Origin: a phage
Strand: one strand, 5' to 3'
Sequence record: PZ452595.1
DNA length: 64,000 bases
The translations under genes were made by a program, and so were the position numbers. This document shows, piece after piece, positions 10,879 to 55,613 of the stretch (position 1 is its first letter; every line of letters starts with the position of its first letter). The notes beneath the pieces were generated by a model. That model saw only the letters and a list, made by a program, of their open reading frames with translations, was not told the origin of the DNA and did not search any database.

Positions 10879-11147
10879 TATTTAAAACGGATAGTCGAAT
10901 CCTTAAAGAACAGCCCAGAACATACTGTTCCTTCTACTTTCTGCCCAGTAGGTCCAATAGCACGAAATCCAGTATGCTGGAAATCATTTTCAGAGCAACC
11001 GAACCAATTATATCCAGTGATTTCAATATTAGTAAAACCACTTGAAGATAAAACTTTGGTTGCATTATCAGCATCAGTACATCCTGCTAACGACACTGCT
11101 AATACTAATGCTGCGATAGAACGATTAATATATTTCATAATTTTCAC
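10878..11147 (-). CDS. putative lipoprotein (89 aa)
   Basis: ORF track; signal peptide with lipobox LAGC. Confidence 0.6.
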   Translation of the reverse strand: MKIMKYINRSIAALVLAVSLAGCTDADNATKVLSSSGFTNIEITGYNWFGCSENDFQHTGFRAIGPTGQKVEGTVCSGLFFKDSTIRFK

Positions 11148-11696: not shown

Positions 11697-12122
11697 TTAT
11701 TCCTTAAAGTGTGCTTTCAGCATTTGATACAAGGACCATGCCTGTTCATTATTTTCAATAGTAACTTTCATGACTGGGAATTCTGTGAAATCTTCTATTT
11801 GATCTTGCTCTTTCTCTTCCTGCTCTTGCTCTTCAACTGCCTGATATGGATTTTCCACTTCATCAAAGAACCCAGCTTCGTTAGTAGAAAGCCAGATAAA
11901 GTTTTCGTCAAGGATATCACCATGTGTTGCATATCCAACTGTGCCAGTAGATGTCACAATTTTAGTAGGACGACCAAGATGGTCAACATCTAAAATTTTA
12001 AAAGGATGCATACCTAAACGGCGCGCATAGATTCCGTTATCAGTATGATCTTTAATAAAATTTTCTTGAGCTTGTTTATTTTTAAATTGATACCATTTAT
12101 TAACTTCAAATCTAATAGCCAT
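11697..12122 (-). CDS. goF: GoF-like protein (141 aa)
   Basis: Size and position (between 39 and motB) as T4 goF by recall; acidic [11 protein letters not shown] tract. Confidence 0.6.
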
Positions 12123-17452: not shown

Positions 17453-18199
17453 TTATCCTCGGATAAGTTTAAAAATTGAACAATTTAGCGGATATCCTCT
17501 TTTCAGTTTAAGTTTATCAATAAAAGACAAATTTTGATACCGCTCTACACCTTGAATAATTTTATCACACATATCATATTGCATTTCTGCTTCTGACAAC
17601 TTTTTCACAATTTTCCAATCCGAGCCTTTAAGAAGAACGTTCAATTTAACAACTTCAGCGCCTTCTGCTATGCGAGAACCATCAATACGAGCTTTAAGTG
17701 CTATAATTCTTAGCTTAATGTCAGAGGTCTGTTTTGATTTAGAAAGCTGAGAAATGTGTTCAATTCGGTTTTCACGTTTTTTCTGTATAGCTTTAATTTG
17801 ATTATAAGTCTTTTTGATTTTAGCCCATTTCTTTTCATCTAAATTTAGTTTATGAACTTTTTTCGCAGATGAACGACCAATTCGCAAAGCAAATAAATCA
17901 CGCTTTTCAATTAACTCTTCTAAAGTATAATCAGAACGAAATGTATTATACTTTTTCTTTACTGCAATAACATTCCCTTTAATGTATCCAACGTTATTAT
18001 CAAAACGTTCTAATGATAATTTCTCTCCTTCAATACGATTATCAAAAGGTTCTCCCGAGTAAGCGCAAACTTTTTGATCTAAAATGTTCTTAATGTAATT
18101 GAAGTCTAAGTTAAAATCTTTAGAACGTCTTTTTGCAGATGCCTGAGTATGCTCTAAACGACGTTTAATTTTACGAATTTGGTTATTAGACAGCTTCAT
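17453..18199 (-). CDS. Srd-like protein (248 aa)
   Basis: Size/position as T4 srd between dda and modA (recall); basic, helical. Confidence 0.55.
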   Translation of the reverse strand: MKLSNNQIRKIKRRLEHTQASAKRRSKDFNLDFNYIKNILDQKVCAYSGEPFDNRIEGEKLSLERFDNNVGYIKGNVIAVKKKYNTFRSDYTLEELIEKRDLFALRIGRSSAKKVHKLNLDEKKWAKIKKTYNQIKAIQKKRENRIEHISQLSKSKQTSDIKLRIIALKARIDGSRIAEGAEVVKLNVLLKGSDWKIVKKLSEAEMQYDMCDKIIQGVERYQNLSFIDKLKLKRGYPLNCSIFKLIRG

Positions 18200-18235
18200 A
18201 TTTTTCTCACATCTTACGGACGGTTAACTACTTAT

Positions 18236-18265
18236 ACTATAACATTTTTACTTTAACTTGTAAAC
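18236..18265 (-). promoter_or_regulatory. T4-type early promoter upstream of srd-like gene
   Basis: GTTTACA - 17 nt - TATAGT. Confidence 0.5.
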
Positions 18266-18280
18266 AACTTTATGTAAAAA

Positions 18281-18305
18281 TGCTTTAAAACTTTCATGGT
18301 ATAAT
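18281..18305 (+). promoter_or_regulatory. MotA-box middle-promoter match on the plus strand (antisense to modA)
   Basis: Plus strand TGCTTTA - 12 nt - TATAAT; no plus-strand ORF >=60 aa downstream. Confidence 0.4.
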
Positions 18306-18322
18306 GAATCTAAGTCCTTCCA

Positions 18323-18925
18323 TTATAGATTAAATCCTTCAAATTCAAGAGTATAGATAGTGTATGTTGAATACTTTTTGTACTCATATCTATCTGCAAT
18401 TCTAAATACACTTCCAGCTGGTATCATTACTTCTTGTTCATCTGAAACTAATTCCATATTACGATAACGATGGCTATCCGGAAACTTAAAGTTTGGATTG
18501 TATTCTTTACAGCGTAGAGCTTTTATAGCATACTCCTGGAAATTGAATACCATAGGAGCTTTGAATTCAAAAATAACTTGTGTGTTATACTCTAAACCAG
18601 AAGCAAAATGTAGAGCTATATTTTTATCATATGAAGCTGATACTACTTTATCAAATGTAATAATATCAATTCCTTGATTTAACACCTGCTTAGTCTCAGC
18701 TGGAACACCTCTCCAAAGAGGTTTATCGTTTGGAACCAAACGAGATTTGATTATTTCATTTAACCAAGAATGATCGTCTGGTTTATTAGTAATACAATGA
18801 ATTAAAAGTTCAATTTCAGATAAATTAAACCCTTCAGAAAGTAATTCTTCACGAATAGAAGCACGCACCGATGCATCCATTGATTTTATTTTAAAATCTT
18901 TTAGTTGCATTACTGAGTATTTCAT
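18323..18925 (-). CDS. modA: ModA ADP-ribosyltransferase
   Basis: 200 aa as T4 ModA; tandem with modB. Confidence 0.8.
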   Translation of the reverse strand: MKYSVMQLKDFKIKSMDASVRASIREELLSEGFNLSEIELLIHCITNKPDDHSWLNEIIKSRLVPNDKPLWRGVPAETKQVLNQGIDIITFDKVVSASYDKNIALHFASGLEYNTQVIFEFKAPMVFNFQEYAIKALRCKEYNPNFKFPDSHRYRNMELVSDEQEVMIPAGSVFRIADRYEYKKYSTYTIYTLEFEGFNL

Positions 18926-19545
18926 TCAACTACCTCAATATCATAAACTTTAAATGTTCCAAATGAATCGTGTAATTTTTCTTTTGAAATAGAAGTTATT
19001 CTATACTTTCCAATTGGAATCATCCATTCTTGTTCACGCACAATCATCATTAAGTTATCAGTACGCTCTGAATCTAGCCCATCAGTATCTTCATACGTGT
19101 ACTTAAACTCAGTATTAGGAGAAGAAAGTATAATATCGCTGATATGGTCAGAATAATTAAAAGCTTTATTAGTTTTTAAGCGAAGTATTATTTTAGTAAA
19201 ATATTCAGCGTAAGAAAAAGAACATGCTGTGAGCAAACTAGTAGTAAATGAATCTACTCTATTCGTTGAAAACACTTCTCCAACTTGTAAATCTTTAATA
19301 AGTTCTTCTGTTGATTTTGATATACCACGATATAACTGATAAGGTGATTTAGTTAAATGCTTTTTAATGATTTTATTCAACTGCCGATGAAGAGCTTCAT
19401 TCTTTTTGGCTTCCATACGTTGCCAAAGAACTGACTGCTCAAAGTCAGTAAATTTTTCACAGACCTTTTTATACATATCATATTGAAAATCGACGCTTTC
19501 AGCTTTTATAGATAACTGTTCAACATCTGCAAGATTAATAATCAT
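18922..19545 (-). CDS. modB: ModB ADP-ribosyltransferase
   Basis: 207 aa as T4 ModB; SD GGAGG; early promoter upstream. Confidence 0.8.
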   Translation of the reverse strand: MIINLADVEQLSIKAESVDFQYDMYKKVCEKFTDFEQSVLWQRMEAKKNEALHRQLNKIIKKHLTKSPYQLYRGISKSTEELIKDLQVGEVFSTNRVDSFTTSLLTACSFSYAEYFTKIILRLKTNKAFNYSDHISDIILSSPNTEFKYTYEDTDGLDSERTDNLMMIVREQEWMIPIGKYRITSISKEKLHDSFGTFKVYDIEVVE

Positions 19546-19571
19546 GATAGCCTCCGTATACTTCAGAAGCT

Positions 19572-19601
19572 ATCATATCATCGTTAGAAAGGAAAGTAAA
19601 C
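19572..19601 (-). promoter_or_regulatory. T4-type early promoter upstream of modB
   Basis: GTTTACT - 17 nt - TATGAT. Confidence 0.5.
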
Positions 19602-48862: not shown

Positions 48863-49332
48863 TTTAAACTCTTTCTAAGCTGCTTCTTAAATGAAGCTAT
48901 TAACTGTGTTTTGGTGTCAGATTCATTATATTCAAATCCTCTTTGAAGCATCTCGGCCATCATTTCCTCTTTTCCTAAACGAGAAAATTCCTTTGATTTA
49001 TCTCCAACAAAGTTAGGGTGAATATTATTTTGGGTGTAATCGGATTTTAAATAAGTAAGTAAATTTTCTAACCATTCAAGATAATCAACACCTTGTCCCT
49101 TTAAGCCAGAACGATTAAATTTATGCTTCATTTGACCTTCTGCGGCATTGCAGAGATTACAAAGCAATCCACGTACCTTTCCAGCTTTCGGTCCGTTTAA
49201 TTCATGGTCATGGTCGAGGTGATTAGCTTGAACATCAGGATTTAGTTCTCGTTGGCAAATTAAGCATTTACCGTTTTGCGCATCATAAAATTTCTGTTTT
49301 TCTTCTTTATATAATTTGCCAGTCAATAACAT
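48859..49332 (-). CDS. 49: gp49 endonuclease VII (Holliday junction resolvase)
   Basis: 157 aa as T4 gp49; zinc-binding CLICQ...HLDHDH. Confidence 0.85.
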   Translation of the reverse strand: MLLTGKLYKEEKQKFYDAQNGKCLICQRELNPDVQANHLDHDHELNGPKAGKVRGLLCNLCNAAEGQMKHKFNRSGLKGQGVDYLEWLENLLTYLKSDYTQNNIHPNFVGDKSKEFSRLGKEEMMAEMLQRGFEYNESDTKTQLIASFKKQLRKSLK

Positions 49333-53218: not shown

Positions 53219-54246
53219 TAGTTTAGTGCATTTAGTGCATTGTTCAGTTTAGAACGTTGCTTCGTGAGATTTTTGACTTTTTCTTGAGCTTTTTCTAGCA
53301 TCTTTTCAGCTTCTAACACTTCATTGGTTGCTTTAACGAGTTCATCATCTACAGCCTTAAGAGACTTCTCAATCGCGTCAGCGTGCCATTTTTCAACAGG
53401 TTTAAGACTCGGATTTTCAATAGGAAGAAAATTCACTTTATTGAATTTCCATGCATCCTTATTACCTGAACTATACATCCAAAATTTAGGATCGTTTGAT
53501 GAGTAATTGGATAAATTTAAATTTAAGTTATCTTGCACTTCTTGCTTTTTCTCTTGCGTGACTTCGTCTTTTCTCAAAAAATCGTATTTAAATGAAACGA
53601 TCATATCAAGTTCATATGTTGTTGTGTCTAATTTAAATCGTTCGAAATGCTGTGAAATCTTAGACTGAACAGCGGCAACAACATCCATATACTTAAATGC
53701 TTCTGTCAGCTGTGATTTAAGGCATTCGCAAATTGAAAGAGAATTTTTTGTATTAGGTTTAAAGCTAATTCGTGCAGTTCTATTATTTTCTTTTAACGGT
53801 CTTACTTCCATCTGAAGAGTATAACCATCAAATTTCAGGTTCTTTAAGTTAATATCAGAACCTTTTAATCGACTAGCCGTCGACAAAATTTGCTTTAATT
53901 GTTTACGGAATAGAGCAATAAATCTCCATTCAATACGATAATGATTTGGATTAAAAAATCCAGATGATAAATCAACCTTACTCTGACCAACACCTTGAAC
54001 AAATAGAGGATTTTTATAATCAATAGTTTTACAGAAATCAGTGAGCTGCTCACGAGCAGTCATTTGAGTAATATACCCAGCTTCATTAAAATTACGCACC
54101 CATTCACTGCTGTTCAGATGTTTAAAGGCGTGAATGGAACAATTAACTTTACCAAGGTCTAAATTATTTTCGCACAAAAATGTCATAGCATCACGAGTAT
54201 AGCTGGCATTACGAACCATATCTTCAATTTGAGAACGAGTTTTCAT
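53218..54246 (-). CDS. hypothetical protein, paralogue family member 3 (342 aa)
   Basis: FRKQLKQILSTASRLKGSD core; coiled-coil tail. Confidence 0.6.
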   Translation of the reverse strand: MKTRSQIEDMVRNASYTRDAMTFLCENNLDLGKVNCSIHAFKHLNSSEWVRNFNEAGYITQMTAREQLTDFCKTIDYKNPLFVQGVGQSKVDLSSGFFNPNHYRIEWRFIALFRKQLKQILSTASRLKGSDINLKNLKFDGYTLQMEVRPLKENNRTARISFKPNTKNSLSICECLKSQLTEAFKYMDVVAAVQSKISQHFERFKLDTTTYELDMIVSFKYDFLRKDEVTQEKKQEVQDNLNLNLSNYSSNDPKFWMYSSGNKDAWKFNKVNFLPIENPSLKPVEKWHADAIEKSLKAVDDELVKATNEVLEAEKMLEKAQEKVKNLTKQRSKLNNALNALN

Positions 54247-55558: not shown

Positions 55559-55613
55559 AATAATCTCAATTAAAAGAGCTTAGAACCATTATACCATCCT
55601 TGGTATAAAGCGG

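Follow-up and report, generated by a model that had tools for sequence, protein, structure and literature searches.

What would a middle promoter be doing behind a gene, pointed against it? The question is raised by the spacer between srd and modA in the 64-kb window (the whole stretch of phage DNA analyzed here, record PZ452595.1), where dda, dda.1, srd, modA and modB are arranged as in T4 and are all encoded on the minus strand. The plus strand of this spacer carries a MotA-box promoter sequence that runs toward modA. The reading we favor, at a probability of about 0.6, is that the site is a MotA/AsiA-dependent antisense middle promoter opposing early mod and srd transcription. The parts of this reading carry different weights. 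The site is very probably a functional MotA/AsiA-dependent promoter; that it serves, if it fires, to oppose the early mod unit and the adjacent srd early promoter is an even bet. The support comes from sequence comparisons, which show a consensus match, rarity, deep conservation, co-occurrence with motA and near-identity to a mapped promoter.

Anatomy and rarity of the site

Read directly from the window, the plus strand at 18278-18314 is aaaTGCTTTA aaactttcaTGg TATAAT gaatctAag. The MotA box with its A-rich lead, aaaTGCTTTA (18278..18287, with TGCTTTA at 18281-18287), is centered near -30 of the predicted start and agrees with the consensus (a/t)(a/t)(a/t)TGCTTtA (PMC2988021) at 10 of 10 positions. 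A 12-nt spacer, aaactttcatgg (18288..18299), separates it from the -10 hexamer TATAAT (18300..18305), a 6/6 match that is followed by gaatctaag; the box-to--10 distance lies within the middle-promoter criterion of 12 +/- 1 bp. A MotA box, a 12-nt spacer and TATAAT on the plus strand are what the sequence-only reading had described, and the window bears this out in every detail. Absent from that reading is an extended -10: the last three spacer letters are TGg (T 18297, G 18298). At the -35 position stands aaaatg, which agrees with TTGACA at 1 of 6 positions, and a sigma-70 scan reported no plus-strand promoter at the modA-srd site. The discriminator and start region, GAATCTAAG (18306..18314), is conserved and holds the predicted +1, the A at 18312 (T4 11897).

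Such sequences are rare, and on this strand rarer still. The window holds three copies of the exact pattern TGCTTTA-N11-13-TATAAT, where shuffles give an expectation of 0.02, and the other two are on the minus strand. A relaxed scan of the window finds 10 sites matching at least 12 of 13 positions, nine of them on the minus strand, with the modA-srd site the sole one on the plus strand. The exact-pattern and relaxed scans thus agree with the earlier claim that the remaining MotA-box promoters are all on the minus strand.

A mapped promoter with the same core

A second copy of the core is found on the minus strand at 55579-55612 of the window, between nrdC.8 and nrdC.7, reading CGCTTTA taccaaggatgg TATAAT ggttctAag. 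It is the orthologue of the mapped T4 promoter PnrdC.7, and the core shared with the modA-srd site is atggTATAATGgtTCTAAG. The published start of PnrdC.7 is T4 position 53325 (PMC2988021 Table 1), which in the T4 sequence (TATAATGGTTCTAAG) is the A seven nt after TATAAT. Both sites have a spacer of 12 nt whose last letters are atgg, followed by TATAAT and G(G/A)(T/A)TCTAAG, so that they share atggTATAATG..TCTAAG. Because PnrdC.7 starts at the equivalent A, the start of the modA-srd promoter is predicted at A 18312. The two differ in setting: PnrdC.7 has the weaker box CGCTTTA, runs with its genes and serves an ORF, whereas the modA-srd site has a perfect box, runs against its neighbors and has no ORF. 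(The coordinate offset between window and T4 is 6414 at srd and 2255 at nrdC.7, so that between these points the window phage is about 4.1 kb shorter than T4, presumably for lack of T4 mobile endonuclease genes.)

The same -10 and start region is seen at a third site, on the minus strand at 48916-48950 of the window: TGCTTCA, 13 nt, TATAATGAATCTGAC. The sequence GGTTCTAAG after the -10 was considered as a separate element and rejected, as other middle promoters, PnrdC.7 and the site at 48916-48950, have it too. This comparison favors assigning the conserved bases after the -10 to the promoter and its start region.

The site in T4 and in the published record

The window phage is a Tequatrovirus, and about 500 genomes of T4-like phages are 92-99% identical to it over the 251 nt around the site. 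T4 itself carries the identical sequence, with the box at 11866-11872, the -10 at 11885-11890 and the predicted +1 at 11897, directed clockwise. None of the 58 experimentally identified T4 middle promoters tabulated in PMC2988021 is at modA-srd, the nearest being Pdda.1 at 11138. The T4 records NC_000866 and AF158101 have no regulatory annotation in the modA-srd spacer, and the sole annotation there in the records of fPS-65 and JB75 is a predicted minus-strand early promoter. For RB69, a supplementary row lists 'Pm:12081' on the plus strand at 12081-12122, an HMM prediction with a score of 7.9 that is not discussed (Nolan et al. 2006, PMC1524935, Additional file 4). This is the orthologous site between srd and modA, which appears there as a low-score prediction, not compared across phages. 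A full-text literature search found no description of an antisense promoter or RNA at modA-srd. A T4 dRNA-seq preprint reports 150 start sites, 22 of them antisense (bioRxiv 10.1101/2024.04.04.588121). The antisense MotA middle promoter proposed here is overlooked in the curated T4 list, and is preceded by one uncommented computational hit in RB69.

Conservation within and beyond Tequatrovirus

Within Tequatrovirus, 329 of about 508 records match a 41-nt core (18278-18318) at 100% identity, and 178 differ from it by one or two mismatches. The adjacent 78 nt, comprising the srd leader and early promoter, reach at least 99% identity in only 27 records, with 227 at 90-95% and 41 at 80-90%. The few variants examined (a TGCTTCA box in AR1, spacer changes in T2 and AR1) fall at tolerated positions. 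Judged by this comparison, the site is under strong selection.

BLAST similarity extending from srd is lost about 28 nt beyond the start codon of that gene; a search with just the 41-nt core does find 171 records from other genera. It is the sole part of the spacer to persist in Mosig-, Gapriver-, Dhaka-, Karam-like, Winkler-, Gelderland-, Moon-, Teguna-, Jiaoda- and Hadassahvirus phages. The shared pattern is [T/C]GCTTT[A/T/C], 12-14 nt, TATAATG(G/A)(T/A/G)T, antisense to srd/mod in every spacer read. Carriers include RB69, JM17 and PHB12 (Mosigvirus), TH57 (Gaprivervirus), VR5 and NC-G (Dhakavirus), LC53 (Winklervirus), NP4 (Gelderlandvirus), CF1 (Moonvirus), TG1 (Tegunavirus) and KpV477 (Jiaodavirus), and further the CIP9-related Enterobacter phages, Pectobacterium phage PM2, an unclassified Klebsiella phage and Acinetobacter phage AbTZA1. 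In the most distant carriers, identity of Srd to that of the window is down to 30-35%.

By chance the relaxed motif would be found in 0.1-0.7% of shuffles per spacer; it is observed in 11 of 11 genera, once in each and antisense, and never on the sense strand. Across these genera the box positions are kept in 8-11 of 11 (TGCTTT in 10-11) and TATAAT in 11 of 11, against 3-8 of 11 for flanks and spacer. The G at -6, directly after TATAAT, and the T at -3 are also kept in all 11. Spacer letters vary among genera while the length stays at 12-13 nt (14 nt in one Acinetobacter phage), and the TGn of the extended -10 is missing in TH57, the CIP9-like phages, PM2, LC53 and KpV477. The sequence-only reading had proposed a look for the motif in relatives, with lack of conservation there as a refuting outcome; the result clearly goes the other way, with an antisense motif kept in 11 genera and missing in one that lacks MotA.

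Co-occurrence with MotA

Searches by tblastn find MotA homologues in every motif-bearing group sampled, including 67 Acinetobacter phage records. The motA gene of the window phage falls outside the window, and the near-identical relatives ACG-C40 and JB75 have MotA homologues. In Krischvirus JSE, representing the single MotA-less genus sampled, the mod-srd junction is present and the motif was not found there; for its genus (RB49), neither motA nor middle promoters were detectable (PMC1524935).

These distributions bear on the alternative that fares best, a MotA-independent sigma-70 promoter that would work through the extended -10 TGgTATAAT with no -35 and be active from the start of infection. 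In its favor, TGn is present and the -35 position matches at 1 of 6, as expected of an extended -10 promoter; TGn is also found in about half of the T4 middle promoters (PMC2988021). Against it, TGCTTT is kept in 10-11 of 11 genera while TGn is lost in several, and the MotA-less genus is without the site. We consider this alternative unlikely. That the box is kept while TGn is often missing points to MotA as the selected input. Even for a MotA-dependent middle promoter, the extended -10 might permit some MotA-independent firing, so that its timing is uncertain.

The predicted transcript

From the predicted +1 at 18312 it is 11 nt to the stop codon of modA (18323..18925, minus strand), which encodes an RNA polymerase ADP-ribosyltransferase, and the predicted transcript then enters the modA 3' end. 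Since the promoter is oriented against modA, this transcript would overlap modA mRNA. Next in its path is modB (18922..19545, minus strand). The start of modB has a feature of its own, a 14-bp hairpin at 19543-19577 on the minus strand in which the leader pairs with the region holding the Shine-Dalgarno GGAGG and the ATG (TATGATAGCTTCTGAAGTATACGGAGGCTATCATG); this hairpin may limit modB translation.

The largest plus-strand ORFs nearby encode 35 and 59 aa, in keeping with the earlier statement that no plus-strand ORF of at least 60 aa follows the site. Downstream ORFs are short and different in each lineage, and the nearest plus-strand ORF of at least 90 aa is over 6 kb away. A small protein product, from the 35-aa GTG ORF at 18360-18467, was considered and set aside, as this ORF has no counterpart in other genera. 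Searches of the downstream region found no tRNA and no Rfam match, and the fold of the first 119 nt is not more stable than that of shuffled sequence (z = -0.25). No convincing plus-strand terminator was found (hairpins inside modA are weak), leaving no defined 3' end. An independent small RNA gene at modA is not supported, given the lack of a stable fold, of an Rfam match and of a convincing terminator. With no ORF, tRNA or known RNA family downstream, an antisense RNA is the most likely consequence of transcription from the site: most simply, the product would be an untranslated RNA complementary to modA and perhaps to modB.

A promoter that has no coding target might instead make a replication primer, in the manner of oriF and oriG, with a persistent R-loop priming clockwise leading-strand synthesis. 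T4 oriF and oriG do use middle-promoter transcripts, and there is "some evidence" tying a MotA-dependent promoter to oriA (PMC3016281). Published origin maps, however, contain only oriA, C, E, F and G, with oriA placed near soc, several kb clockwise (PMC3016281), for which reason a link to oriA was rejected; and what stays constant across genera is the place behind mod and not an origin-like element. Priming of replication is in our view improbable as the role of the site.

Architecture of the mod-srd junction

The early promoter serving srd (17453..18199, minus strand) lies at 18236..18265 on the minus strand, with GTTTAC/TTTACA, 17 nt and TGtTATAGT. It had been named in the sequence-only reading as a divergent neighbor of the MotA site, and a promoter scan finds it at 18264-18236. 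The two promoters stand back-to-back, with 16 bp (18265-18280) between the -35 GTTTAC and the MotA box. Farther into the srd 5' leader, at 18213-18223 on the minus strand, is a block, CTTACGGACGG, that can form a small 4-bp hairpin. Phages of Tequatro-, Mosig-, Gapriver- and Dhakavirus retain this block, and in KpV477 (Jiaodavirus) it sits inside the antisense-promoter spacer.

The arrangement of the two promoters is not constant. In Tequatro-, Mosig-, Gapriver- and CIP9-like phages the site is upstream of the srd early promoter, back-to-back with it, and the gap from box to -35 varies. Placement is the same in VR5 and PM2, 77 nt from the srd ATG, with no early promoter at the scan threshold. 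In the Winkler-, Gelderland- and Moonvirus phages (LC53, NP4, CF1) the site falls inside the stretch from the early promoter to the srd ATG, so that the two promoters are face-to-face. The early promoter in these genera consists of GTTTAC, 18 nt, and TAGAAT or TAAACT; the two -10s are 13-14 bp apart and the predicted starts coincide, so both promoters cannot be occupied simultaneously. The Teguna- and Jiaodavirus phages have the same short distance from site to srd ATG, with no early promoter above the scan threshold. The box and -10 are fixed while the spacer is free and the order relative to the early promoter flips, which places the constraint on the box/-10 pair itself. The site is therefore not an UP element, since its register is with its own -10 rather than with the early promoter.

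The same data weigh on the suggestion that conservation reflects the sense strand (a mod-srd mRNA element, an UP element for srd, or a processing or termination signal) and that the promoter look is incidental. In favor of this, the reverse complement of the site falls within the srd 5' UTR in Winkler-, Gelderland- and Moonvirus phages, and the Tequatrovirus site occupies the position expected of an UP element for the srd early promoter. But lineages differ in how far the site is from the early -35, and even in the order of the two; what is conserved is two blocks 12-14 nt apart with a free spacer, together with TATAAT in all 11 genera and a start region common to PnrdC.7; the sense-strand RNA fold is unremarkable (z = -0.15); and MotA-less JSE is without the site. 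A sense-strand cause is, on balance, highly improbable. As for a chance match without function, retained through short divergence time, the 92-99% identity of the whole region within Tequatrovirus would allow it, but the site evolves more slowly than the adjacent spacer inside Tequatrovirus and is kept across genera in which the spacer is unalignable and Srd only 30-50% identical, and these cross-genus data exclude it with negligible residual doubt.

The sequence-only reading had offered two interpretations, an antisense middle promoter or a bidirectional regulatory site. The MotA middle promoter is strongly supported, given the full consensus, the conservation in 11 genera and the absence from the MotA-less genus. 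The bidirectional site is not supported as stated, as the position of the srd early promoter relative to the box shifts between lineages.

Relative to mod, the site is placed more regularly. The distance from predicted start to mod stop is about 10-40 nt in most genera sampled, and 121 nt in CF1. In Klebsiella phage CP-p-KP-21072 a dmd-like gene (1251-1442) is inserted between mod and srd, and the site still adjoins the mod stop. (No early promoter for this antitoxin-like Dmd gene was detected in its 67-nt spacer, which is mostly filled by the antisense promoter.) Acinetobacter phage AbTZA1 has the site without an adjacent mod gene, a phosphatase gene being found there instead, whereas in the other carriers it is just 3' of mod; by this exception mod is not universal as a target. 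The AbTZA1 locus is of interest in itself. At about 1085-1245, on the minus strand of the locus, the orthologous promoter (TGCTTTA, 14 nt, TATAATGGTTCTA) is followed by about 125 nt of GC-rich, hairpin-forming DNA ending in a strong two-way terminator, AAAGGAGCCATTTGGCTCCTTTT. The downstream RNA has a fold z-score of only -1.2 and no Rfam match above threshold. From its sequence the element looks like a free-standing small RNA gene.

Tequatrovirus phages have one further feature at the junction. CATTATA, at 18321..18327 on the plus strand, is the inverted-repeat partner of TATAATG (18300-18306) and is specific to Tequatrovirus. On the minus strand it reads TATAATG. The hexamer TATAAT within it (18322-18327) shares bases with the modA stop codon and is directed toward the middle promoter, from whose -10 it is separated by 16 bp; the only -35 available to it is poor (TTGAAT at 15 nt). 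This hexamer may be a remnant of the face-to-face layout of other genera. A terminator role for the TATAATG...CATTATA repeat was rejected, as its hairpin of -8.3 kcal/mol is no better than shuffles (z = -0.15) and the repeat is confined to Tequatrovirus.

Proposed mechanism and significance

From these features we infer firing in vivo, dependence on MotA, and an effect of the transcript, and the following sequence of events may be proposed. Early in infection, host RNA polymerase would transcribe modB-modA and srd leftwards from their early promoters. After about 2 min, MotA and AsiA would have accumulated; AsiA would remodel sigma-70 region 4, leaving MotA on the box at -30 and region 2 on the -10 (TGgTATAAT). 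Sigma appropriation of this kind is an established T4 mechanism (PMC2988021). Transcription would then start at about 18312 and proceed rightward into the modA 3' end and onward into modB, giving a non-coding antisense RNA. Polymerases on this path would collide with those arriving from the modB early promoter, and the RNA could pair with mod mRNA. The DNA occupied at the site would adjoin the srd early promoter in Tequatrovirus and overlap it in other genera; in the face-to-face genera an open complex at the site would physically exclude the early promoter. The net effect would be to curtail the toxic ADP-ribosyltransferases, and srd as driven by its early promoter, at the early-to-middle switch.

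ModA is highly toxic, and shut-off of T4 early promoters has been credited to "as yet unknown strategies" (PMC2988021). We suggest, tentatively and at somewhat less than even odds, that the MotA/AsiA switch also actively shuts off a toxic early unit, through an ancient antisense promoter present in at least 11 genera and acting by convergent transcription or antisense RNA. If true, this would account concretely for part of how T4 early transcription is shut off, a question long without an explanation. Studies of sigma appropriation take T4 as their reference system, and shut-off may be partly built into the middle-promoter regulon, a view supported by persistence of the site from Escherichia to Acinetobacter phages. 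Since the site is intergenic, its -10 or box can be mutated without altering any protein. The transcript, if it exists, would also give a model phage a conserved antisense RNA that is well defined.

Comparison with known systems

Promoters behind or inside a gene that fire against it are familiar from other phages, as with lambda oop and PaQ, P22 sar, and pR/pL of coliphage 186. Such antisense or convergent promoters lower gene expression by RNA pairing, by polymerase collision, or by both. The overlapping convergent promoters of 186 have a parallel in the face-to-face layout of Winkler-, Gelderland- and Moonvirus phages. Within T4, Belin et al. in 1987 reportedly described both sense and antisense transcription of gene 32, which makes gene 32 antisense RNA a T4 precedent at a different locus; that work is listed beside the middle promoter P32 in Table 1 of PMC2988021. 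The oriF and oriG promoters are likewise MotA-dependent, and their transcript matters as RNA rather than as message, although no origin is mapped at modA-srd. Known from its sequence, the modA-srd promoter would differ from the lambda, P22 and 186 examples in how it is switched on: by sigma appropriation through MotA and AsiA, at the transition from early to middle transcription.
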